From: Chitinophaga pinensis
GTDB taxonomy: Bacteria > Bacteroidota > Bacteroidia > SXHM01
DNA length: 49,313 nt
Assembly: GCA_945861685.1 (NCBI GenBank)
Contig: CAMAVO010000003.1
Span: 1 to 49,313, forward strand
Reading direction: 5' to 3'
Part shown: one piece after another, positions 12,355 to 46,770 of the stretch
Numbering within the stretch: the stretch's first letter is position 1
Layout of the letters: every line of letters starts with the position of its first letter
Made by a program: the position numbers and the translations under genes
The notes under the pieces: model-generated
What the model saw: only the letters and a program-made list of their open reading frames with translations
Told to the model about the DNA's origin: nothing
Database searches by the model: none

Positions 12355-12424
12355 ATACAAATCTCATGAAGGGATTTGGGTATTAAACGAAAAGACTAAC
12401 AGGAAATTGTTGGAAGTGCAAATT

Positions 12425-12870
12425 GTTTTTTCTCTTCCGGAGTTTTCGCTGCCTCTTGCAGCGGTGTTGCTCCCACTTGCAAAGGTTTTGTTGTCTCCTG
12501 CAGGACTGTTGCTGCCTCTTGCAGAGCTTTTGTTGTCTCTTGCAAGACTGTTGTTCCTTCTTGCAGAGGTGTGTGCGTCTCTTGCAGGACTTTTGCTCCC
12601 TCTTGCGGAGGTGTTGCTGCCTCTTGCAGAGGTGTGAGTGCCTCTTGCAAGACTGTTGTTGCCTCTTGCAGCGGTGTTGCTCCCTCTTGCGGTACTTACA
12701 GCATTAATTGCATAGCAATTGGTGTTAATTGCGGCACAGTGAGTGTTAATTGTAGAGATGTTGCTCCCTCTTGCAGGACTGTGAGCGCCTCTTGCAGCGC
12801 TGTGAGTATGGGTTTATTGGGTAATAATGTCAGTTTATGGGGTGTTTTGTGCCTAATTGGCAGAAAACTG
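12425..12870. repeat. Degenerate 21-bp tandem array, about 18 units with core CTCTTGCA plus a degenerate tail
   Basis: Core recurs every 21 bp from 12432 to 12789 without phase slip. Three TAATTG variants at 12705, 12726 and 12747. A 24-bp exact repeat occurs at 12451 and 12661. Confidence 0.92.
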
Positions 12871-20669: not shown

Positions 20670-20696
20670 AAACCCGCTTCATGCGGGTTTTTTTTT
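20670..20696 (+). terminator. Intrinsic terminator of the PpiD-like gene
   Basis: AAACCCGC-ttcat-GCGGGTTT followed by a T run. Confidence 0.85.
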
Positions 20697-20728
20697 GCCT
20701 TTTCAATACAAAATGTTGGTTGGGTGTC

Positions 20729-20954
20729 ACACAGACGCGTGTGTTGGGTCAAAAAACATTATTTAGTATCACACAGGCACGTGTGTTGCCTTAAATACCC
20801 TTATTGAATGCAACACAGGCTCGTGTGTCGGACAAAATAGCATGTTTGTATATAACACAGAAACCTGTGTTTGACAGAATAGCAGTATTTAATATAACAC
20901 ACGTGCCTGTGTGATACTAAAGAGGCTTCTTGATAGTAACACAGATGCCTGTGT
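20729..20954. repeat. Array of six 16-bp palindromes ACACA-N6-TGTGT at an exact 42-bp period with 26-bp dissimilar spacers
   Basis: Units start at 20729, 20771, 20813, 20855, 20897 and 20939. Perfect 26-bp inverted repeat at 20762-20787 / 20896-20921. Confidence 0.93.
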
Positions 20955-21014
20955 TACATCCAATAGAATTCAGCATCTAAACTTCCGTATCCGGATAACA
21001 CTCAATTGTCTTCT

Positions 21015-22280
21015 TCACCTCAACAACTGCATCCTGTACGCATCCAGTTTAATAAACACAAACAGCAGAATAGTAAACGCCCACAGCGATGAGCCTCCGT
21101 AGCTGAAAAAGGGAAGGGGAATACCGATAACGGGGGCAAGTCCTATGGTCATGGCAATGTTTACCGCAAAGTGAAAGAACAGAATAGAAGCCACCCCGTA
21201 GCCATAGATGCGTGTAAAGGTCGATTTCTGTCGCTCGGCTACATAAATAATGCGCACTAATAAAAACAGGAACAACACAATCACCACAAAGGCGCCCATA
21301 AAACCCCACTCTTCGCCCACGGTGCAAAAAATAAAGTCGGTGCTTTGCTCGGGCACAAACTTGTATTTGGTTTGCGTACCGTTTAAAAAACCCTTGCCTG
21401 TAAAGCCGCCCGAGCCAATGGCAATTTTACTCTGGTTCACGTTATAGCCAACGCCTTTCGGGTCATCTTCCTTGCCCAGCATAACATTGATACGCGTTTT
21501 CTGATGTATCTCCAGCACATTGTCAACCACATACCCCACGCTGTATGACATACCCGAAAACACCACCGCAGTGCCGCCAATAAGCAGCGCATTTTTCCAG
21601 TTGCGTTTGCCCGCAATAAAGATGAGAAAAGCAATTACGCCCACAATCCACATCATCGTCTTGGGGTCAAACAGCAGCGTAACAATAAACACCAAAACCA
21701 CCGCCACACCCGCCATCAAAAAGTTTCCCGATAAGCCTTCGCGATACAGCACAAACAAAAAAGCCCCGTAAACCAATGCCGAACCCGTATCGTTCTGCAA
21801 CAGAATAAGCAGGGCAGGGGCGGCAATAAAAGCAGCCGTAATCAGTTTGGTTTTATTGTCCTCAAACTTAATGTTCATGGTGCTCAGATATTTGGCAACC
21901 ACCAGCGCAGTGGCAAATTTCCCGAACTCGGCCGGCTGTATCCTGAAGTTGCTGCCAATCTCAAACCACGATTTGCTTCCCGAAACCTCGCGCCCGAAAA
22001 CCAATACCAATATAAGCAGCAGCATCACCAACCCGTAAACAGGATAGGCCGAAATGGTATAAAATTTTCCGTCAATCAGCAGAATAACCGCAGCAATAAA
22101 AATGGAACTGCCTATCCAGATCAACTGCTTGCCATAGTTTTCCGAAGTGTCGAGAATACTTTTGTGCTCCTCGTTATACACGGCAGCATAAATACTTATC
22201 CAGCCCAGGAAAATCATTACCAGAAAGATGGAAACCATCACCCAGTCTATGTTATCGAATATGGAGGTTTGTTTTCTCAT
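21015..22280 (-). CDS. rodA: Rod shape-determining protein RodA (SEDS family)
   Basis: IQPAEFGK, SKIAIGSGG, PEQSTDFIF and PFFSYGGSS motifs; follows mrdA. Confidence 0.95.
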   Translation of the reverse strand: MRKQTSIFDNIDWVMVSIFLVMIFLGWISIYAAVYNEEHKSILDTSENYGKQLIWIGSSIFIAAVILLIDGKFYTISAYPVYGLVMLLLILVLVFGREVSGSKSWFEIGSNFRIQPAEFGKFATALVVAKYLSTMNIKFEDNKTKLITAAFIAAPALLILLQNDTGSALVYGAFLFVLYREGLSGNFLMAGVAVVLVFIVTLLFDPKTMMWIVGVIAFLIFIAGKRNWKNALLIGGTAVVFSGMSYSVGYVVDNVLEIHQKTRINVMLGKEDDPKGVGYNVNQSKIAIGSGGFTGKGFLNGTQTKYKFVPEQSTDFIFCTVGEEWGFMGAFVVIVLFLFLLVRIIYVAERQKSTFTRIYGYGVASILFFHFAVNIAMTIGLAPVIGIPLPFFSYGGSSLWAFTILLFVFIKLDAYRMQLLR

Positions 22281-34376: not shown

Positions 34377-37300
34377 TTATCTCGCTATTGTTATAGGTCC
34401 GGTATAAGGTTCAGTTGTTCCATTGTGCAGGTCTATTACATAATAGTATGTTCCTACAGGCAGGTCTTTGCCTTTGTATCTTCCATCCCAAGCTGTTCCG
34501 TAGCCTTTAGAATAGAAGAGTTCTTGTCCCCAACGGTTGTAAACCATTACCACTGCTTCCGGGAAATTATTGATAAAGTCAATAATCCAGGTATCATTAA
34601 TACCGTCATCATTTGGTGTTATACCATCAGGGAAAACAATTCCGGGAGATACTTCAATGGTTAACGAATCAACCGCAGAGCATCCGTTTTCATCTGTTCC
34701 GGTTACAAAGTAGATAGTAGTTATTGTTGGTGATGCAATCGGGTTGTAGATGTTTGCATTATCCAACCCATCGCTTGGCGACCATGAATAAGTTCCGTTG
34801 GTTCCAGCACCGGCAGCTTCTAATTGCACCGTAGTTCCTGAAAGAATTTCAGCACCAGCACCCGCATCAATTACAGGAAGAGGGTTAACGGTAACAGTTA
34901 CTGTGTCATAATCCACGCAACTGAAGTTGGTAACCTGAACAATATAGGTTGTAGTAGTAGTGATGGTTGCAACCGGATTGTCGATGTTGTTGTAATTTAA
35001 TCCTGAAGCAGGAGTCCACAGATAACCGCTTCCGCCTGTTGCCTGCAACTGAACCTGATCACCAATACAAATTGTAATATCGGGTCCTGCGTTTGCATCA
35101 ATTACTATCTGCTCAACCACTGTTACAATGAGTGTTTTAGAGCAACCTGTGTTGTCGGTTACGGTTACGGTATAAACTCCGGGAAGCAGGTTAGTCAGGT
35201 CTTCGGTAGTTGCTCCGTTATCCCAATCGTAGGTATATCCCGGAACACCACCTGATACAGAAAGGTCAATTGCTCCGTTGTCAGTATTAGTACATGTTGG
35301 TGCAGTTACAGAAGCAGAGACTACAATAATCGGAGGCTCGCTGATGGTAACAGTTGCTGTGGTATCACAACCATTCGCATCGGTTACAGTTACTGTGTAA
35401 GTACCTGCACAAAGACCGGTAGCAGTTGCAGTTGTTTGTCCGCCCGGAACCCAGATGTAAGAGTATACAGGAGTTCCACCTGCAGGTGTTACTGTAGCTG
35501 TTCCATCGCAATTGCCTCCGCAGCTTGCGTCTACACCTGTTGCAGCTGCAGTAAGCAATGCAGGTTCGGTAATGGTAATTGTTGAAATTGAAACGCAGTT
35601 TGCAGCATCGGTTACGGTTACTGTATAAGTGCCCGGGCAAAGATTGGTTGCCATAGCAGAATTTTGTCCGTTAGCCCATACAAAGCTATATGGCTCAACA
35701 CCGCCTGTTGCAATTGCAGTTGCCGTTCCATCGCACTGGCCAAAGCAACTTACGTTGTTGAACAATGGAATTGCAGTTGCCAAAGCATTCTGGTCGCTGA
35801 TGATGACTGTGGAAGTAGTATTACAACCGATTGCATCAGTAATAACAACACTGTATGTTCCAATACAAAGATTAATTGCGGTGCTATCGGTTTGTCCGTT
35901 ATTCCACAGATAAGAGTATGGAGGAACACCACCCAATACGCTAACTATTGCATACGCATCGCAATTTCCAGCGCAAAGTATTTCACTGAAATCAGTTATA
36001 GAAGAAGTTAGGATTGGTGGTTCAAGAATGATAACGTTGACAGAAATGGTACAACCGTTTCCATCGGTAACTAGCACTGAATAATTTCCTGCGCAAAGAG
36101 CTACAGCGGTGCTGTCGGTTTGTCCGTCACTCCATGCATATTGGTAAGGAAGTGTTCCACCACCAACGTTAGCAGTTGCTGTTCCATCACACACACCACC
36201 GCAACTTGCATTGGTTGTAGTCGGGTAAAGTGTAAGGATAGGAGGCTCAGTGATTACAATGGTTTGTGTTGTGTCGCAACCGTTGGCATCTGTAACGGTT
36301 ACCGTGTAGGTTCCTGCACACAGATTAATTGCAGTTTCGGTAGTTTGACCTGATGGAGACCACAAGTAAGAGTATGCCGGTGTTCCACCGTTTGCTGTTG
36401 CAGTAGCAGAACCATCGCATAGTCCACCGCAGCTTACATTATTAATTACTGTAGCATCAAATACAAGTAAAGTTGGTTCTGTTACAATTACTGTATCCTG
36501 ACCTGTGCAACCATTAGCATCGGTTACTAACAAGTAGTATTCGCCCGGACAAAGGCTATCAACAAAGTCTATTGTTTCCAGTCCTGTAGTGTTCAGCCAC
36601 TGATACGTGTAAGGAGCAGTTCCGCCCGCAGGGGTTGCAGTTACATCTGCATTGCAGAAACCAAAGCAGGTTACGTTATTCACTGCAAATGTCATAGTAA
36701 CAGGTGCCGGTTCAGTAACGTTGATAACAGCTGATTGCACGCAACCAAGAGAGTCGGTAACGGTAACAGTATAAATACCTGCACACAATGCAGTAGCGGT
36801 ATCACCTGTTTGAGAAGTTGGATTCCATGAATAGGTGTATCCTGTAACTAACGAAGGAGTACCACCTGTAGCAACTACCCAAGCCGAAGCATCGCAAACA
36901 CCGTTGCAACTTGCAGGCAGCATGTCTGTTGTAAGTGTGATTTCGGTAGGCTCACCAATTAATACTGAAGTTCCCTGAACGCATCCGTTGGCATCCGTAA
37001 CCTGAACAATGTATGTTCCAGCGCAAAGACTGTCTGCCGTTGCATCGGTTTGGTTACCGGGAGTCCATAAATAGGTGTAAGCACCGGTGCCGCCTGTTGC
37101 GGTAACTGTTGCTGTTCCATCGCAAACGCTAAAGCACAAAGCATCTGTCCATGAAGTTGACAAAACAATAGGTGTAGGTTCTGTAACCGGAATGTCAGTC
37201 CATGTAGAAGTGCAACCGTTAGCATCGGTAACAACTACACTATACGTTCCGGGGCAAAGTGTTACTGCAGTTGCAGTAGTTTGTCCATCGTTCCACAGGT

Positions 37301-40300
37301 AAGAATATGGTAACACTCCGCCTGAAGGAATGATAGTAGTTGTGCCATCGCATGCTCCGTTGCAGGTTATGTTAGAAACAACAGGAAGACTGAGCGCTAA
37401 CAAAGAAGGTTCGGTCACAATCACTATATCGGTTGCAATGCAACTAGAAGCATCGGTAACCTGAACAGTATAAACTCCCGCACAAAGATTAGTAGCAGTA
37501 TCAGTGGTTTGTCCATCGCTCCACAGGTAAGTGAAAGGGGCAGTGCCAAGCGTTACAGTAACGGTAGTAGCACCATCACAACTTCCACTGCAGGTTGCAG
37601 GCGTTGATGAAACTGAAATGCTTGAGTTAGGAACGTTGTTTACAGGGAATGCCAGTGATTCAACACATCCGTTGGCATCTGTAATGTCAACCGTGTAAAC
37701 TCCGGCACAAAGTCCAGTTATTGAATTTGTTGTTTCACCACCACCCCACAAGTATATGTAAGGCGCTTGCCCGTCTGAAGGAGCAAGTGTTATGCTTCCA
37801 TTGCAAACTCCGCAATCAGCAGTAACAACAACTTCGTTTGCCTGAATTTGTAAAGGCTCAGCAATAGTAACTGTTTCTGTAAGCGTACAGTTGTTGGTAT
37901 CGGAAACCTGCACAAAATAAGTTCCTGCGCATAATCCTGAAACTGAAGTAGTAGTTGCTCCTCCCGGTACCCACAGGTAATCGTAAGGTGCAATTCCTCC
38001 TGTTACCCCTGTAACCGTAGCAGAACCATCACATGAACCAAAGCAACTTGCATCGGCTGTAGTAACTGTAACTGAAGTTGGGCCACCTGTATTGCTGATA
38101 GCAACTGCAAAGCTTCCTGTGCAACCGTTAGCATCCGTAACAAAAACAGGATAAACACCTGCGCACAGGTTAGTTGCTGTTGCAGTAGTAGCGCCTGTTC
38201 CCCATAAGTAGGTGTAAGGTGCAGTTCCACCGATAACTGATAAAGTAGCTGTTCCATCACACTGTCCGCAAGTAGCAGGAGTTGAAGTGTAAGTCATATC
38301 TACTATTCCCGGCTCAACGATAGTTACTGAGGTGGTAGCTGTACAACCATTAGCATCGGTAACAGTTACTGAGTATGTTCCCGGAATAAGATTGCTCAAA
38401 TCCTGAGTAGTTTGCCCGTTATCCCACAGGTAAGTGTAACCCGGAGTTCCGCCTGAAACAGTCAGGTCAACTGAGCCGTCTGTGTTTCCGTTGCACGAAA
38501 TATCGGTAACGTTGGTTGTTAGTGAAATAGCAGTTGGCTCAGAAACGTTAACGTTTGCTGTTTGAGTACAACCATTGCCATCTGTAACAGTAACTGTATA
38601 GAAGCCTGCGCAGATATTGCTTAATGAAGTTGTTGTTTCACCGCCCGGAGACCATAAGTAAGTATAACCAGGAGTTCCGCCCGAAACCGAAATACTTGCC
38701 GAAGCATCACAAACGCCATTGCAACTTGCAGGTGTTGTAGTTGGTGTAATTACAATTGGTGTAGGTTCAGCAAGGATGATTACAGCTACTTGCTGGCAAC
38801 CGTTTGCATCGGTAACAGTAATGGTGTAGGTGCCTGCACAAAGGTTGTTGATGGAGTTGGTGGTTTCACCACCAGGTGTCCATAGGTAAATGTATGGTGC
38901 TGACCCGCCTGAAATGCTTGTGTTTATGAAGCCATCACAACTTCCGTTGCAGGTTGGTTCGCTTGAAGTAACATCGATTACAATAGCCGAGTTACTTGGA
39001 ACAGCAACTGTTGCAATTGTTTCGCAACCGTTTGCATCCGTAATAGTGCAGGTCATAATACCCAAGCAAAGATTGATAGCAGTTTGTGTTGTTTGTCCGT
39101 CACTCCACAGATAGGTGTATGGAACAAAACCACCGCTTGGGGTAACTGTGGCAGTTCCGTTACACTGACCGTTACAAAGAACAGGAGTAGCACTTGAAGT
39201 ATAAGTAATAGGAGCAGGCTCGTTGATTGTAACCGAAGCAGTATCGTCACAACCGTTAAAGTCGGTTACCACAATTTGAAAGGTTCCGGCACAAAGATTA
39301 TTTACGGTGTTGGTTGCAGGTCCTGAAGGCAGCCAGAAATAAGTGAAAGGGCTTGTTCCTCCAACCTGTGTAGCTATTGCCGTTCCGTCACAAACGCCAT
39401 TGCAGCTTGCATTGGTTCCTGTTGCAGAAGCAACCAGGTCACCCGGTTCAATAATAGTTACCGTTGCTGAAGCTGTGCAACCGCTTGCATCCGTTACTGC
39501 AACGTTGTAAATATTAGGACACAAACCTGTTGCAGTTTGTGTTGTTTGTCCACCCGGTGTCCATAGGTAAGTATAGCCACCGCTTCCACCGCTTGCGCTA
39601 ACTGTTGCTGAACCATTACATAATCCGAAACAACTTACGTTACTGCTTGACGAAATATTTACTGAAAGTGCTGAAAGCGGTTGAGTGATTACAACATTAT
39701 TGATTGCTGTTGTACACCCGTTTGCGTCAGTAATAGCCACTGAATAAGTACCCGGAGCAAGACCTGTGCGGTCTTGTGTGGTTTGTCCGCTTGGTGTCCA
39801 TAAATAGGTGAAAGGACCAGTGCCACCGCTTACTGTTACATCAATAGCTCCGTTGTTTGCTCCGAAACAGTTGATATTAGTATGTGTTTCTGATGCAGAA
39901 AGTACAGCGGGTTGAGTAATAGTAACCGATAAATTTGAATTACATCCGTTGATGTCTGTAACTGTTACCGTATAGGTATTAGGTGCAAGAGCGGTGCGGT
40001 CTTCTGTAGTTTGTCCGCTTGGTGCCCATAGATAAGCATAAGGAGCAGTTCCACCTGAAACAGTGATATTAATAGCTCCGTTGTTAAGCCCGTTACAGGT
40101 TACGTTTGTATGTGTTTCGGTAATAGTAATTGAAGTTGGCTGAGCAATGGTATAAGAGTAAACGCCACCGCAACCATTGGCATCAGAGAACGTCAGGATA
40201 TAGGTTCCTAATGCAAGTCCGCTGATATCCTGTGTGGTTGCTCCGGTAGACCATGAATAGGTATAGATTGGAGTTCCACCGCTTACAGTAAGGTCAATAG

Positions 40301-43300
40301 AACCTGTTCCGCTTCCGTTACAAGGAATGTTGGTTACGTTAGCAGAAAGTGTAATGGTTGTTGGTTCGGTAACGGTATAAATTGCAAACGAAGTACAGCC
40401 TGTTGTTACATCGGTAACACTTACTGAATATGAGCCTGCAGGAATAGAAGATAAATCCTGAGTAGTTGCTCCGTTACTCCATGTATAGGTATAGTTTCCT
40501 GAACCACCTGAAACGGTGAGGTTAACAGCACCGTTGCTTCCGCCTGCACAATTAATATTGGTGATTGCAACAGAAAGTGTAAATGCTGAGGTTTCGCTTA
40601 CTGTGAAGAATGAGTTAGCTGTGCAACCGTTTGCATCGGTAACAGTTACTCCGTATATAGCACCCGGTAATCCGCTAATGTCTTGTGTTGTTGCTCCGTT
40701 TGTCCATAAGTAAGTATAAGGTGCAGTTCCACCGCTTACACTTAAATCAACGGCACCTGTGCTGGTGCTGCAACTTGAATTGGTTATGCTGGATGTAAGC
40801 GTAATTCCGCTTCCTGCAGTAACTGTGAAGCTTGTAAGACCCGAGCATCCAGTTGTAATATCTGTTACCGTTACAGTATAAGCTCCGGGAGCAAGTGCTG
40901 TGCGGTCTTGTGTAGTTTGTCCGCCTGGTGACCATAAATAAGAGTAGTTGCCTGAACCACCGGAAACGGTAACATCAATTGCACCGTTGGTTGCCGCACA
41001 ATTCGTAGCAGGAGTTACAACTCCTGAAACGTTAGGCGCTCCTGTTTCTGATACATTGATTGCTGTTGATTGAACGCAACCCAGGGTAATATCTGTAACG
41101 GTTACAGTATAAATTCCGGGAGCAAGACCTGTTAAATCCTGAGTGGTTAATGAGCCCGGAGTCCATGAATAGGTATAGTTTCCTGATCCACCTGTAATGG
41201 TTATATCTATTGATCCCGTGTTTGCATTGCATTGTGAGTTTACAACACTTACTATATTAATGGTAAGATTTGAAACCTCAGTGATGGTAACATTAAGGCT
41301 TGATGAGCAACCGTTGGCATCTGTAACGGTAACATTGTAAAATCCTGCTGAAAGCCCGCTGATGTCTTGTGTTGTTGCACCGTTGCTCCATCCATAAGTA
41401 TAAGGTGCAGTTCCACCTGAAACGCTTAGGTTAACAGAACCATTGGCTCCGCTTGCACAGCTTACATTTACATGTGTTTCGGTTAAAGCGATTGCAGCTG
41501 GTTGTGTAATTGTAAATCCGGCACCTGCTGTGCAACCGTTGGCATCTGTAATAGTTACCGAGTTGGTGCCTACACCTAGTCCGCTGATGTCTTGTGTGGT
41601 TTGTCCACCGGGTGACCATAAATAGGTATAAGGAGGAGTTGCCCCACCAAGTGTAAGGTCTATACTTCCGTTGCTGCCGCCATTGCAGGTTACATGAATA
41701 ATATCTACAAATCCATTATATCCAGCAGGCTGTGTAATGGTAAATGATAAAAATGAAGAACAAAGACTTACTGCATCTGTAACTGAAACGGTATAAGTTC
41801 CGGGTGAAAGACTGCTGATATCCTGTGTTGTTGCTCCGTTTGACCACGAATAGGTATATGAGCCTGAACCGCCTGAAACGGTAAGGTTAACACTTCCGTT
41901 GCCGGCACCTGCGCAGGTTATATCCGTTTCAACCGAGGTAACTGTTATGCCATTTGAACCGCTTACAGGGAATACGCTGTTAGCTGTGCAACCATTAGCA
42001 TCTGTAACGGTAACTGAATATATTCCGGCACCAATGCTGCTGATGTCTTGTGTTGTTACCCCGTTGCTCCACAGATAAGTTAAAGGAGCAGTTCCACCCG
42101 TAACAGTTAAATCAACTGCACCGCTGTTGCTGCTGCAATTAGAGTTGGTAACAGAACCAGAAAGCGTCATTGCATTATTATAGGATACAGCAAATGTTGC
42201 TATCGCAATACAACCTGAAGTGTTATCAGTAACGGTAACGGTATAGCTGCCTACTGCAAGATTGATGCGATCTTGTGTAATTTGTCCGCTTGGCGCCCAT
42301 AAATAAGAATAACTTCCTGAACCGCCTGTAACGGTAATATCTATTGCACCATTAGTAGCGTTGCAATTTGTTGCATTAGTTACTGTACCTGTAATATTAG
42401 GATTGCCTGAGTTCTGAACATTATTTGCCAATGTTTGCGTGCAACCCAATGTTACATCGGTAACAGTAACGGTATAAACTGCGGCATTAAGACCGCTGAT
42501 GTCTTCTGTGGTTGCACCTCCAGGTGACCATAAATACGTGTAGTTTCCCGAACCGCCCGCAACAGTTAAATTAACTGCTCCGTCACTTGCGCCACATGTT
42601 GCATCAGTAATAAGTGATGAAACGCTGAGGTTCGATAATTGTGTAATGGTTGCGCTTCGTGTAGAGGTACAACCGTTGGCATCGGTAATGTTTACTGAAT
42701 AAAAGCCGGGTGCCAAGCCTGATAAATCCTGAGTGGTTTGTGCAGTGTTCCAAAGGTAGGTGTACGGTGATGTTCCGCCTGAAACAGTTATATCAATAGA
42801 GCCGGTGTTTGAGCCGGCACAGTTTACATTCACATGTGTTTCGGAACTGATAAGAATTGTTGGTTGCGAAACCACGATTGCCGGTGGACTAAGTGTGCAA
42901 GTGTTTGCATCGGTAATAACTACTGAGTAACTTCCAGCTGCAAGTCCGCTTATATCTTGTGTTGTTGCTCCGTTAGACCATAAATAGGTGTAAGGTGCTG
43001 TTCCTCCACTTACTGTTAAATCAATGGCTCCGTTCAATTGCCCGAAACACAAAACGTTGGTAACAACTGAACTTTGGCTCATTCCGGCAGGTTCTGTAAC
43101 AGTAACGGTTCCGTTGGTTGTGCAACCAAGTGCATCGGTAACTACTACGTTGTGAACACCTGCTGACAAGCCTGTTGCTGTTTGTGTTGTTTGATTGCTT
43201 GGTGACCAGAGGTAGGTATATCCAGGAGTTCCACCTGAAGGTGTTGCTGTTGCAGTTCCGTTTGCCCCACCGTTGCACGAAACAGGTGTGAACGACATTG

Positions 43301-43691
43301 TAGTAGTTACGCCTGCTGCCGGTTGTGTTATGGTTATGGTAGTTGAAATTTGTGTAGTTCCGCAACCACTATTGTCTGATTCAAATACCACAATGTAATT
43401 ACCTGCCGGTAAGCCGGTAAAGGTGTGTGTTAATATATTGTCAGTGAATGTCAGGAAGATAGAAGGTACCTGCACCACGCCAAAGTCATAAGGTGCAACG
43501 CCTCCGTTACCTACAATGGTTATGCTTCCGTCACTCCCGCCAAAGCAGGTTACGGGGGTCATTGTTACAGATGTAAAGCTCAACGGACATTGGGCCTGTG
43601 CTGTGTTACTTGAGAAGGTGGTAAGGAATACCGCAAGCACCAGGGCTGCACTTTTCAAAATAGTATTCATAGGGCGTATAATTTTTTCCAT
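34377..43691 (-). CDS. Giant SprB-like surface adhesin with tens of Cys-containing ~75-aa SprB repeats and a T9SS type B CTD
   Basis: Repeats of C....G.I...V.GG..PY.Y.W......L..G.Y.V.VTD.NGC; C-terminal ITPNDDGIND.W...YNRWG...WDG...GTYYY; cognate porP/sprF downstream. Start may be 43670. Confidence 0.92.
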   Translation of the reverse strand: MEKIIRPMNTILKSAALVLAVFLTTFSSNTAQAQCPLSFTSVTMTPVTCFGGSDGSITIVGNGGVAPYDFGVVQVPSIFLTFTDNILTHTFTGLPAGNYIVVFESDNSGCGTTQISTTITITQPAAGVTTTMSFTPVSCNGGANGTATATPSGGTPGYTYLWSPSNQTTQTATGLSAGVHNVVVTDALGCTTNGTVTVTEPAGMSQSSVVTNVLCFGQLNGAIDLTVSGGTAPYTYLWSNGATTQDISGLAAGSYSVVITDANTCTLSPPAIVVSQPTILISSETHVNVNCAGSNTGSIDITVSGGTSPYTYLWNTAQTTQDLSGLAPGFYSVNITDANGCTSTRSATITQLSNLSVSSLITDATCGASDGAVNLTVAGGSGNYTYLWSPGGATTEDISGLNAAVYTVTVTDVTLGCTQTLANNVQNSGNPNITGTVTNATNCNATNGAIDITVTGGSGSYSYLWAPSGQITQDRINLAVGSYTVTVTDNTSGCIAIATFAVSYNNAMTLSGSVTNSNCSSNSGAVDLTVTGGTAPLTYLWSNGVTTQDISSIGAGIYSVTVTDANGCTANSVFPVSGSNGITVTSVETDITCAGAGNGSVNLTVSGGSGSYTYSWSNGATTQDISSLSPGTYTVSVTDAVSLCSSFLSFTITQPAGYNGFVDIIHVTCNGGSNGSIDLTLGGATPPYTYLWSPGGQTTQDISGLGVGTNSVTITDANGCTAGAGFTITQPAAIALTETHVNVSCASGANGSVNLSVSGGTAPYTYGWSNGATTQDISGLSAGFYNVTVTDANGCSSSLNVTITEVSNLTINIVSVVNSQCNANTGSIDITITGGSGNYTYSWTPGSLTTQDLTGLAPGIYTVTVTDITLGCVQSTAINVSETGAPNVSGVVTPATNCAATNGAIDVTVSGGSGNYSYLWSPGGQTTQDRTALAPGAYTVTVTDITTGCSGLTSFTVTAGSGITLTSSITNSSCSTSTGAVDLSVSGGTAPYTYLWTNGATTQDISGLPGAIYGVTVTDANGCTANSFFTVSETSAFTLSVAITNINCAGGSNGAVNLTVSGGSGNYTYTWSNGATTQDLSSIPAGSYSVSVTDVTTGCTSFAIYTVTEPTTITLSANVTNIPCNGSGTGSIDLTVSGGTPIYTYSWSTGATTQDISGLALGTYILTFSDANGCGGVYSYTIAQPTSITITETHTNVTCNGLNNGAINITVSGGTAPYAYLWAPSGQTTEDRTALAPNTYTVTVTDINGCNSNLSVTITQPAVLSASETHTNINCFGANNGAIDVTVSGGTGPFTYLWTPSGQTTQDRTGLAPGTYSVAITDANGCTTAINNVVITQPLSALSVNISSSSNVSCFGLCNGSATVSASGGSGGYTYLWTPGGQTTQTATGLCPNIYNVAVTDASGCTASATVTIIEPGDLVASATGTNASCNGVCDGTAIATQVGGTSPFTYFWLPSGPATNTVNNLCAGTFQIVVTDFNGCDDTASVTINEPAPITYTSSATPVLCNGQCNGTATVTPSGGFVPYTYLWSDGQTTQTAINLCLGIMTCTITDANGCETIATVAVPSNSAIVIDVTSSEPTCNGSCDGFINTSISGGSAPYIYLWTPGGETTNSINNLCAGTYTITVTDANGCQQVAVIILAEPTPIVITPTTTPASCNGVCDASASISVSGGTPGYTYLWSPGGETTTSLSNICAGFYTVTVTDGNGCTQTANVNVSEPTAISLTTNVTDISCNGNTDGSVDLTVSGGTPGYTYLWDNGQTTQDLSNLIPGTYSVTVTDANGCTATTSVTIVEPGIVDMTYTSTPATCGQCDGTATLSVIGGTAPYTYLWGTGATTATATNLCAGVYPVFVTDANGCTGSFAVAISNTGGPTSVTVTTADASCFGSCDGSATVTGVTGGIAPYDYLWVPGGATTTSVSGLCAGTYFVQVSDTNNCTLTETVTIAEPLQIQANEVVVTADCGVCNGSITLAPSDGQAPYIYLWGGGETTNSITGLCAGVYTVDITDANGCVESLAFPVNNVPNSSISVSSTPATCSGSCDGATTVTVTLGTAPFTYLWSDGQTTDTATNLCAGVYTVQVTDASSCIATDIVIVTEPSLLALSLPVVSNITCNGACDGTTTIIPSGGVLPYSYLWNDGQTTATAVTLCPGTYSVVVTDANGCTSTWTDIPVTEPTPIVLSTSWTDALCFSVCDGTATVTATGGTGAYTYLWTPGNQTDATADSLCAGTYIVQVTDANGCVQGTSVLIGEPTEITLTTDMLPASCNGVCDASAWVVATGGTPSLVTGYTYSWNPTSQTGDTATALCAGIYTVTVTDSLGCVQSAVINVTEPAPVTMTFAVNNVTCFGFCNADVTATPAGGTAPYTYQWLNTTGLETIDFVDSLCPGEYYLLVTDANGCTGQDTVIVTEPTLLVFDATVINNVSCGGLCDGSATATANGGTPAYSYLWSPSGQTTETAINLCAGTYTVTVTDANGCDTTQTIVITEPPILTLYPTTTNASCGGVCDGTATANVGGGTLPYQYAWSDGQTDSTAVALCAGNYSVLVTDGNGCTISVNVIILEPPILTSSITDFSEILCAGNCDAYAIVSVLGGVPPYSYLWNNGQTDSTAINLCIGTYSVVITDAIGCNTTSTVIISDQNALATAIPLFNNVSCFGQCDGTATAIATGGVEPYSFVWANGQNSAMATNLCPGTYTVTVTDAANCVSISTITITEPALLTAAATGVDASCGGNCDGTATVTPAGGTPVYSYIWVPGGQTTATATGLCAGTYTVTVTDANGCDTTATVTISEPPIIVVSASVTAPTCTNTDNGAIDLSVSGGVPGYTYDWDNGATTEDLTNLLPGVYTVTVTDNTGCSKTLIVTVVEQIVIDANAGPDITICIGDQVQLQATGGSGYLWTPASGLNYNNIDNPVATITTTTTYIVQVTNFSCVDYDTVTVTVNPLPVIDAGAGAEILSGTTVQLEAAGAGTNGTYSWSPSDGLDNANIYNPIASPTITTIYFVTGTDENGCSAVDSLTIEVSPGIVFPDGITPNDDGINDTWIIDFINNFPEAVVMVYNRWGQELFYSKGYGTAWDGRYKGKDLPVGTYYYVIDLHNGTTEPYTGPITIAR

Positions 43692-43795
43692 TTGTTTCGG
43701 GTTGGAACTATTGTAAAATCAGGATAAAAATACATCTTTCCTGATAGAATGAAAATTATAGATTGTATTTATTTTTGAACGAGGGTTTAACGCAA

Positions 43796-43803
43796 CAAAT
43801 ATA
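43796..43803 (-). promoter_or_regulatory. -7 element (TATATTTG) for the adhesin gene
   Basis: TAnnTTTG in the AT-rich upstream gap. Confidence 0.5.
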
Positions 43804-43949
43804 AAATAGTTGTCGTTTGTCGAAAATTCTTTTTCCCTTGCAGGCAAAGGATTTTAGAAACATTTTGAAGAAAATTGTGTCCACCTGAGAATACAGGTTA
43901 CTAACAATTTTGGGTGTTAAAATAATATGAAAAAGTGAAAAAAACGTTT

Positions 43950-44615
43950 TCAGTAAATAATAAATAGCCCTTTTTCTTCGGGTTCGTTATAAAAAACCGA
44001 TTGTGCCGCACTGTTTACGGTTTTGCAAAATTCATAAAGGTTGTTCATTTTTTCAACGCGCTGGCTGGAGTAGCGTATGCGCAGGTGTTTAAAATACTCC
44101 TGTTGGGTTTCTTTTTCCAGAATGGTTTGGGTTTTTGTGCCCAGGTTGGTTAGCAAAATGGCGGGCATTCCCACTGCAGCAAGTTCGGCACTATAATCTT
44201 CAGCAATTTTTTTCATTACCAGTAGCCACATGTATTGGTTAAGCTGGGTGGCACGTGCTTTTTTGCGTTCGGTAAATCCAAATTCTTCGGCTTTTCGTTT
44301 TTTAGCCGGAAATGCTTTTTTTACATAATGTTCCAATTCGCTGGCTATTGTAAATCCTGCTTTTTTCGCTTGCTCAAGTTCTTCTGAATGGTGTTGCAGT
44401 TGATCCATTACCGTTTCATCGGTTTCGGTGGCTTCACATTCGTTGATAGATGATAGCCAATTGCCGGCATAGGCGGCATTAAGGTCGGGGTCAAAGGCGC
44501 TGAACCGGGCAAGGTAATTTAAAAAGTGCGTGTGCAGCGTTTCGCTTTTTTGAATAAGCAGAGTATCTTCCATTGAAAAATCGCGTTCGCGTTCTTTTGG
44601 TTGTGTTGTTGCCAT
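43950..44615 (-). CDS. Hypothetical 221-aa cytoplasmic protein, probably all-alpha
   Basis: ATG-started ORF with amphipathic helical patterning; no signal peptide, TM or motif I can name. Confidence 0.8.
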   Translation of the reverse strand: MATTQPKERERDFSMEDTLLIQKSETLHTHFLNYLARFSAFDPDLNAAYAGNWLSSINECEATETDETVMDQLQHHSEELEQAKKAGFTIASELEHYVKKAFPAKKRKAEEFGFTERKKARATQLNQYMWLLVMKKIAEDYSAELAAVGMPAILLTNLGTKTQTILEKETQQEYFKHLRIRYSSQRVEKMNNLYEFCKTVNSAAQSVFYNEPEEKGLFIIY

Positions 44616-44635
44616 GGTTTAGGTTTATTTTTAGG

Positions 44636-44904
44636 TTGTCCGCAAATATAATGCAATTGTCCGAAGATATTACTTAGTTGTCCGCTAAAATTATATAGTT
44701 GTCCGTAAAATTTACTTAGTTGTCTATTAAAATTACTTGATTGACCGCAAAAATGATAGTTATTATTTTTGCGGTCAGCTACGTTATCTTTGCGGACAAC
44801 ACAGAAATAATTGCGGACAACACAGAAGTAATTGCGGACAACACAGAAGTGATTGCTCCCACCCAAGTAAATAGAGCGGACAACACAGAAAATAGTGCGG
44901 ACAA
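44636..44904. repeat. Mirror-symmetric 21-bp-period array: six TTGTCCGC-type units, central hairpin, seven GCGGACAA-type positions
   Basis: Left cores at 44636, 44657, 44678, 44699, 44720, 44741. Right cores at 44771, 44792, 44813, 44834, (44855 degenerate), 44876, 44897. Central 13-bp stem TGACCGCAAAAAT/ATTTTTGCGGTCA. Confidence 0.93.
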
Positions 44905-44970
44905 CGCAGAAAAATGCTGTTTTTTGATGAAATTGGGGCTAAACAGGAGTGTTTAGAGTTTAAGGAAGGC

Positions 44971-46708: not shown

Positions 46709-46770
46709 TTGCCACAGATTCACAGATTTCAAGAAATAGATTCATTTATTAATCTGTGAATCAGTGGCAA
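46709..46770. repeat. REP-like inverted repeat (CCACAGATTCACAGAT type)
   Basis: 20-bp arms at 46709-46728 and 46751-46770 with 1 mismatch. Confidence 0.82.

Follow-up and report, generated by a model that had tools for sequence, protein, structure and literature searches.

Which relation holds between an orphan gene and an array of phased repeats that directly precedes its start codon? The question is raised by a locus in a 49,313-nucleotide stretch of Chitinophaga pinensis DNA (contig CAMAVO010000003.1, positions 1 to 49,313; the whole stretch is hereafter called the window). Here a gene for a protein of 221 amino acids (aa) and an array of short words, repeated every 21 bp in two mirror-image arms, lie together between the genes of a TPR protein and a giant adhesin. 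We favour, with a probability of about 0.45, the reading that gene and array form a 981-bp module consisting of a protein and its DNA address, in which a helical dimer would read its own phased words and assemble along one face of the DNA. The source genome (G000) is a metagenome-assembled draft of 3.04 Mb in 259 contigs with an estimated completeness of 87.85%. Its counts of gene copies and arrays are lower bounds, arrays may break assemblies, and open reading frames (ORFs) were called mechanically. Handles beginning with G, C and L denote genomes, contigs and loci.

Array association and core words across the family

Genes of the protein family were found to be preceded by 21-bp arrays far more often than other genes. 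Each 5' flank was taken as 500 bp together with 30 bp of the gene and scored by autocorrelation over lags of 5-49, and an array was called strong if the match fraction was >=0.5 and z >=3.5; 600 random ORFs of >=250 aa, all from G000 only, served as control. Among 24 evaluable genomes of the class sample, each represented by its best match, the best lag was 21 or 42 in 19 and the array was strong in 15, against 71/600 and 11/600 of the control ORFs. This corresponds to an enrichment of strong arrays at family 5' flanks of about 34-fold (15/24 vs 11/600). Loci L073 (no flank), L080 and L086 (partial or at a contig edge) and L062-L064 (repeats of earlier loci) were left out of this comparison. 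Two of the 11 strong control matches were themselves family members and several others were further orphan genes. The first-pass annotation of the locus had placed similar Bacteroidota proteins beside 21-bp repeats, and these counts bear this out; a general lack of arrays among homologues, named beforehand as the contrary outcome, is not what we observed, with strong arrays in 15 of the 24 genomes.

A second set, the 27 full matches (partial L013 dropped), gave a similar picture, with a best lag of 21 or 42 in 23/27, or 25/27 when lags of 20, 22, 41, 43 and 44 are counted. Strong arrays preceded 15 of these genes, or 16/27 with the wider lag set, and one homologue had a period of 22/44. All members of the clade at >=50% identity possessed mirror arrays, while more distant members often had direct arrays only (L003, L024, L026, L029, L034).

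Nearly every homologue was associated with a different core word, and the distribution of these words is informative. The window locus (L001) and metagenome contig L059, whose proteins are 67% identical, both carried the core GTTGTCCGC, while spacers and unit numbers had changed (the L059 array holds 6 distal and 3 proximal exact units). Likewise, L016 and L017 (87% identity) both carried the core AGTAATAATA. Paralogues at 50-69% identity, in contrast, had other cores (GCTCCCGA, CTGTTTGCAAT, GGTAGCAT, AGTAATAATA), among them L012, whose protein is 57% identical to that of the window and whose core is GCTCCCGA. Because the core is fixed in orthologues, different in paralogues and nearly unique in the genome, a module-specific reader is needed, and judging from these sequences the co-inherited adjacent gene is the simplest candidate. 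Within a single array, the apparent spacers are copies that have diverged from one another (e.g. AATTAnTTCTGT). The AATTAnTTCT portion of the unit is common to the distal arms of several paralogues, which suggests that arrays were duplicated together with their genes.

Layout of the module and its presence at syntenic sites

The architecture of the window array is highly regular (Table 1). Exact TTGTCCG cores occur on the plus strand at 44636, 44657, 44678 and 44699 and on the minus strand at 44793, 44814, 44835, 44877 and 44898, and all nine (44636-44904) stand in exact 21-bp register. Degenerate units occupy the remaining slots at 44720, 44741, 44771 and 44855, which gives 13 slots (6 proximal and 7 distal). 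Tandem Repeats Finder reported a period of 21 for both arms. TTGTCCG was counted 27 times in the window compared with 5.5 +/- 2.7 in 100 shuffles, none of which reached 27, and across the G000 assembly the two-core pattern was confined to the module array, save for one pair spaced by 13 nt elsewhere. The arms of the central palindrome (44742-44754 and 44765-44777) meet at the junction of the inverted array arms and form the apex of the hairpin predicted for the array RNA.

The gene was recovered as an ORF at the extent given in the first-pass annotation (43950..44615, minus strand), as was its distance to the array, given there as 21 bp: 20 nt separate the end of the ATG at 44615 from the start of the nearest core at 44636. 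Two ORFs that cross the array (44741..44956 on the plus strand and 44519..44866 on the minus strand) are by-products, since the period equals seven codons. The word TATATTTG at 44640-44647 (plus-strand coordinates) overlaps the last array unit and is present again in L059; we take it to correspond to the -7 box of Bacteroidetes promoters. A promoter and terminator scan with a sigma-70 model, outside whose coverage Bacteroidota promoters lie, returned 5 elements compared with 3.2 expected.

The extent of the module was delimited by comparison with other organisms. Three congeners (G002, G003, G004) possess orthologues of the neighbouring TPR gene with 87-91% identity. In these genomes only about 12 bp separate the BLAST matches of the TPR 3' end and of the region upstream of the adhesin (window 43601-43937), and the junction spacer comprises roughly 25-30 unalignable bp, compared with about 1.03 kb in the window. 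On L059, in contrast, a blastn alignment covers window positions 44930..43950 (70% over 990 columns), halts at the stop codon at 43950 and picks up again in the adhesin upstream region (43813-43601). The module is therefore found at the same site in two organisms (G000 and L059) and is absent there from three others. The self-contained unit of about 1 kb proposed in the first-pass annotation is thereby supported, as the L059 homology spans exactly gene plus array and the whole is missing in the three congeners. At this chromosomal site, gene and array were either both present or both missing. Patchy presence among relatives, likewise anticipated, was also seen in the class at large: a profile built from 70 members detected the family in 35/399 sampled class genomes and 19/200 genera, with up to at least 7 copies in some genomes and at least 8 in G000.

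At the module borders only a weak imperfect repeat and no convincing target-site duplication were detected. Since L059 carries the module at the same site, loss explains the pattern as well as gain does, and insertion or loss would account equally well for the difference between G000 and L059 on the one side and the congeners on the other.

Table 1. Features of the gene-plus-array module, in window coordinates
Feature	Position	Strand	Basis
Whole module, gene plus array, 981 bp	43950..44930	-	blastn to L059 ends at both edges; segment missing at syntenic site in G002, G003, G004
Gene for 221-aa protein, unnamed all-helical family	43950..44615	-	ORF call
A-rich 20-nt leader, last core to ATG	44616..44635	-	read from sequence
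Gene-proximal arm: 6 slots at 21 bp, 4 exact TTGTCCG and 2 degenerate (TTGTCTA, TTGACCG)	44636..44747	+	
Central palindrome, 13-nt arms and 10-nt centre, on the axis of symmetry between the array arms	44742..44777		read from sequence
Distal arm: 7 slots at 21 bp, 5 exact cores	44771..44911	-	
Conserved distal edge, ending in GTTTTTTGATGA (44919-44930)	44912..44930		array bordered by same word in L059; blastn alignment ends here

Two further family loci of G000 could be compared in the same way. A second module, on contig C25, lies inside a 3.7-kb segment that is absent from all five congeners; the C25 site holds a different, gene-less mirror array in G004 and G001 and nothing in G005. Directly after the stop codon of the C25 family gene we noticed a palindromic element of about 40 bp (L092 3941-3986) which occurs in many copies and on both strands in all five congeners, and which is either of the REP (repetitive extragenic palindromic) type or a shared terminator. 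At the C1 site (L002 in G000, L016 in G003, L017 in G002) the flanks are nearly identical between species, while the family protein of G000 is only 53-54% identical to its counterparts and the G000 array is degenerate. Judged from these sequences, the C1 cassette either evolved much faster than its flanks or was replaced in place. A 130-bp multi-copy element beside the C122 module had no repeats in G000.

Other features were noted around these modules. The downstream neighbour in the window (34377-43691) encodes a protein of 3104 aa made up of repeats of about 75 residues (the giant adhesin), whose C-terminal segment is presumably of the gliding-motility / type IX secretion system (T9SS) type-B sorting kind. 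Short 8-nt tandem words (CACAGATT x2) occur at window positions 46713-46728. In L002 (1416-1458) 8-nt words form an inverted pair and thus a hairpin after the stop codon of the paralogue, and in three species a CACATAG-type hairpin precedes the C1 module. These short words and the CACATAG-type hairpin belong to a class of short-period intergenic repeats.

The protein and a proposed mode of array reading

No Pfam, NCBIfam, PHROG or PADLOC family could be assigned to the 221-aa protein, and the same was true for six other array-flanking orphan ORFs. Matches to Dak2 and to PCNA-inhibitor were weak, far under their cut-offs, and were rejected. A profile search of the PDB returned designed helix bundles only (E 0.02 or worse), and the ESM Atlas unnamed Bacteroidota clusters only, where DUF6261 at 0.88 is a lead. 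In an exhaustive search the family comprised 602 representative clusters at E<=1e-3; a search for related loci with the single protein yielded 3 metagenome loci and none in genome contigs. Members fall into two length classes of about 220 aa and about 310-330 aa. A C-terminal CarboxypepD_reg domain was found in 3/10 of the longer members scanned, and in the model of a long form (predicted local distance difference test, pLDDT, 94.6) the C-terminal part is a beta domain whose only matches, at low TM-score, are generic cupin / jelly-roll folds. Longer fused forms were not encountered in our search, which is weak evidence.

The AlphaFold2 model of the protein (mean pLDDT 95.9) is an elongated bundle of helices without any strand, with long helices at residues 66-101 and 153-207, in line with the helix pattern described in the first-pass annotation. 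Its cytoplasmic location was read from the hydrophilic N-terminus alone and is putative. Prediction with two copies gave a score of 0.69, compared with 0.00 for the best of 3 controls; such a score was reached by 20/30 proteins whose solved structure is a pair of one chain and by 1/23 of those solved as a single chain, counts that are rough because an alignment of our own was used. At least 66% of contacts agreed between runs, the partner pLDDT was at least 88, and the predicted interface (residues 105-113, 123-137 and 169-184) is symmetric, all of which supports a symmetric homodimer at the level of modelling. The near-invariant residues Q172, E173, K176, R179, T183, R186 and N191 lie on one face of the long helix. 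Among these, Q172, K176, R179, T183, R186 and N191 form a conserved polar and basic stripe on the 55-residue helix, beside the interface segment 169-184. By arithmetic on the model, this helix (about 55 x 1.5 A) approaches the length of one 21-bp unit (about 71 A). The modelled fold appears to have no known relative.

These properties are consistent with the following mechanism. The 221-aa helical protein would form a two-fold symmetric dimer that recognises a word of about 9 bp (GTTGTCCGC) repeated every two helix turns upstream of its own gene. As the unit repeats every two DNA turns, all sites would lie on the same side of the DNA. Binding would nucleate at the central palindrome and spread outward over both oppositely oriented arms, and one large nucleoprotein complex would then cover the promoter region of the gene and feed back on its own expression. 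We infer in this scheme the protein as the factor reading the core, the nucleation and spreading, the autoregulation and any cellular role of the complex; the pointers to binding are indirect, namely the core kept in orthologues, the cores that differ in paralogues, the period of two turns and the predicted dimer. A period of two or four helical turns that is shared by unrelated words points to duplex DNA and to recognition from one face. The symmetric dimer would fit the mirror layout, and the modelled long helix has about the length of one unit. The first-pass annotation had suggested that the protein binds, processes or mobilises the array. Its gene-array unit and the link to the family stand, while scans of families, Foldseek and VIA-align revealed no nuclease, recombinase, transposase or known DNA-binding fold and no catalytic motifs.

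Two kinds of known system come closest to the favoured arrangement. Plasmid iterons and their Rep proteins (of the R6K, pPS10, RK2, P1 and F type) combine phased repeats of about two turns with an adjacent reader gene, inverted copies near the promoter, a specificity private to each element and a dimerising reader. The module resembles them in its 13 slots at exactly 21 bp ending 20 nt from the ATG. It differs in that the protein consists of helices only and has neither the Rep winged-helix fold nor a Rep match in Pfam or NCBIfam, in its chromosomal position between syntenic TPR and adhesin genes with at least 8 family copies in G000, and in its arms, which are mirror arrays of 6-7 units. In the parC-ParR (R1, pSK41) and tubC-TubR systems, two blocks of phased repeats upstream of the binder operon are bound cooperatively on one face, giving a large complex and autoregulation. 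Phased-repeat blocks upstream of its own gene are shared by the module. However, the 981-bp unit holds only one real gene and no ParM, ParA or TubZ, its neighbours encode a TPR protein and a giant adhesin, and the strandless model shows neither a ribbon-helix-helix nor a winged-helix and has no family matches. By analogy, the module resembles an iteron- or centromere-like logic without Rep, ParR or a motor and apparently without replication or partition machinery.

Other arrays, rival explanations and implications

The module array is one of many in this genome. A scan of G000 found 77 periodic regions, with a period of 21 or 42 in 53, of 41 in 7, of 20 in 1 and of 43 in 1, and thus 62 arrays of period 20-43 in 3.04 Mb, of which 5 lie inside long ORFs and 57 are intergenic. 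Almost every array has repeated 9-mers of its own; only two pairs have such words clearly in common, and four more pairs share one 9-mer. Of the intergenic arrays, five are directed towards a family member. Another 11 face further orphan ORFs that are built in a similar way, the N-terminal part being helical and the C-terminal part CarboxypepD_reg- or FN3-like. For the other 41, the facing gene is that of PBP1a, of a protein with T9SS sorting domains or some other ordinary gene, or there is no facing gene start; arrays upstream of large T9SS-sorting-domain proteins are located at C2:13406, C126:4992 and C221:939.

Among the orphan ORFs, the C135 family is probably a remote relative of the main family. 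Comparison of the two by hhalign gave a probability of 73.6% (E 2.9e-5, 160 columns), and the C135 hidden Markov model (HMM) matches four main-family members as well as C48 and C11. When single-sequence profiles of other orphan ORFs were compared with the family, no significant similarity emerged; the alignment-to-alignment comparison of C135 was moderately significant. A further orphan family of 223-236 aa (C187:3036-3746, C188:4885-5556, C31:10105-10791) has a helical N-terminal half, a C-terminal signature that looks fibronectin-III-like by eye, and a 20-42-bp array before each start.

The window itself contains two additional arrays. A gene-less 21-bp array with about 15 units of the core CCTCTTGCAG lies between the start of the PBP1a gene and the end of the next gene (12391-12790); G004, G005 and G002 lack it at this site, and the same core also occurs in arrays at C72:4754-5202 of G000 and in G003:C44. 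Between convergent genes lies a 42-bp array of palindromes (AACACAGnnnCnTGTGTT; 20679-21050). At this latter site, G003 and G004 carry 21/42/84-bp arrays of unrelated sequence, G005 carries nothing and G002 has a gene for an 882-aa secreted protein. By this comparison the site is apparently a hot spot for arrays, and bare arrays seem to turn over quickly.

Several of our observations weigh against a protein that reads its own array. The first-pass annotation had pointed out basic patches, which are present, but with a pI of 5.8 and a net charge of -5 the protein as a whole is slightly acidic (median pI of the family, 6.1). Foldseek against the PDB and viral libraries returned no match at E<=1e-3, and searches with Pfam, NCBIfam and PDB profiles detected neither a fold nor a domain that binds DNA. 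The wide VIA-align search matched generic helical bundles, with LemA at the top (best Z 10.6) ahead of talin rods and sensor bundles; for helical bundles, as for long helices and repeats, a Z under about 13 may reflect a common arrangement only. The C-terminal beta-sandwich of the long forms would be more typical of surface or structural proteins. Loci L011 and L060 have different cores at 69% protein identity. Tandem gene pairs show the order long gene, terminator, array, short gene, with no separate array for the long gene upstream. A start-facing gene of the kind described was present at only 16/57 intergenic arrays, and arrays can therefore exist without a neighbouring reader. Finally, bare arrays at one syntenic site were unrelated among three congeners.

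Some of these points would also be expected if the arrays were generic phased cis elements, such as curved or stiffly phased DNA in promoter-upstream, insulator or terminator regions, which the protein does not touch. This is the main rival, although we consider it rather unlikely. It would account for the great number of arrays (62 in 3.04 Mb, 57 of them intergenic), for their occurrence before PBP1a, T9SS secreted proteins and ordinary genes or between convergent genes, for the constant period with nearly all-different words, for the unrelated sequences of same-site bare arrays and for an acidic protein in which no DNA-binding fold was found. Phasing alone, however, leaves it unexplained why two lineages with proteins of 67% identity have each kept the same 9-mer in about 9 units despite changed spacers, and why strong arrays are so enriched at family 5' flanks. 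A small mobile cassette, with the mirror array as the recombination or transposition site and the protein as a new kind of mobilisation factor, appears improbable. The exact unit is indeed present or absent among congeners, the second module lies in a segment missing from all five of them, the family is multi-copy and patchy (35/399 genomes, 19/200 genera), and the C1 module has diverged to 54% identity between nearly identical flanks. Inverted multi-site ends are moreover typical of Tn7 and Mu, with which the form of the array may be compared. Both array arms, however, abut on one side of the gene instead of flanking it, neither catalytic motifs nor a recombinase or transposase fold emerged from the family scans and structural searches, the borders show only their weak imperfect repeat, and loss in the other lineage would explain the sites equally well, given the module of L059.

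The mirror arms may alternatively act as RNA, either as a long leader or as a separate transcript, forming a beads-on-a-string hairpin that is bound by the protein or controls translation or stability. The 320-nt array folds at -96 kcal/mol compared with -57.7 +/- 4.2 for shuffles (z = -9.2), the closest homologue clade has mirror arrays throughout, and mirror arrays of fixed words and variable spacers have been described as possible beads-on-a-string RNAs (10.64898/2026.10.21.760802). We nevertheless hold this explanation to be of low probability, as a hairpin arises automatically from any inverted arrangement of DNA sites, the many members with direct arrays only could not form one, nothing in an RNA would call for a constant period of 21, 42 or 41 nt, and no Rfam family was found, only chance hairpin matches far below threshold. 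Least probable by far is an RNA-guided array of the CRISPR or TIGR-Tas kind, in which the variable 12-nt stretches would be guides. It is brought to mind by the small helical protein beside fixed words that alternate with variable stretches, and one study describes TasA as likewise small, nuclease-free and encoded beside its array (10.64898/2026.09.09.750476). With TIGR-Tas the module shares a compact and mostly helical protein beside a short-period, poorly conserved array that CRISPR tools miss (PMC12045711; 10.64898/2026.09.09.750476). In the latter study a Nop domain defines the Tas proteins, while box C/box D words on either side of 8-10-nt spacers define the arrays (10.64898/2026.09.09.750476). 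The module units, in contrast, have no periodic CTGA and no periodic box C/box D words, TGATGA occurring once, at the distal edge. Pfam found no Nop domain in the protein or in 70 aligned relatives, and no Nop-type chain appears among the 50 matches listed by VIA-align, which leaves such a fold possible. Moreover, the variable parts are divergent versions of one sequence and not independent acquisitions, and even close paralogues have different fixed words, contrary to what a conserved effector reading the repeat would require. CRISPR arrays, with repeats of 23-50 nt, unrelated spacers and a period of about 60-79 nt (10.64898/2026.10.21.760802), differ from the 21-bp module in their spacers and in period.

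The nearest precedent for the mirror form itself comes from the same source, which describes mirror arrays of fixed n-mers and variable 3-mers with periods of 7-8 (clusters #8,581 and #156,623; 10.64898/2026.10.21.760802). There, too, an array of a fixed word is followed by its reverse-complement copy in which only the fixed word is complementary. The periods of 7-8 nt, without a co-localised protein or fold in that part, differ from the 21/42 period and the linked gene family described here. Some multiple-of-3 periods were removed in that study and clustering was by sequence, so arrays like those of the module were likely missed; no 21-nt class was found in the part available. Heptanucleotide simple-sequence repeats (STRR-like) differ in that the best lag of the module family is 21 or 42, not 7, and the units are not internally 7-periodic. 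A literature search for 21-bp, helical-turn tandem or iteron-like chromosomal repeats in Bacteroidetes/Bacteroidota returned nothing relevant, and we found no description of a system that the gene-plus-array unit matches.

Beyond the favoured reading of a protein that binds its own phased words, a more far-reaching one seems speculative to us. Each paralogue might read its own word of about 9 bp by a new DNA-binding fold that is quickly re-coded, so that a genome would hold at least a dozen private, orthogonal pairs of protein and address, with gene-less arrays as satellites that are bound in trans or were left behind or generated by modules. If true, bacteria would possess an equivalent of satellite DNA together with proteins dedicated to binding it.

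Even without binding, it needs explaining why an orphan family is so strictly coupled to phased repeats. If the protein does read its own array, it would provide a new DNA-recognition fold with an easily re-coded specificity and a new kind of chromosomal gene-plus-address module that is widespread in environmental Bacteroidia (602 clusters). It would also offer a handle on the dozens of intergenic arrays of two-turn pitch, nearly all with different words, in a genome of 3 Mb.

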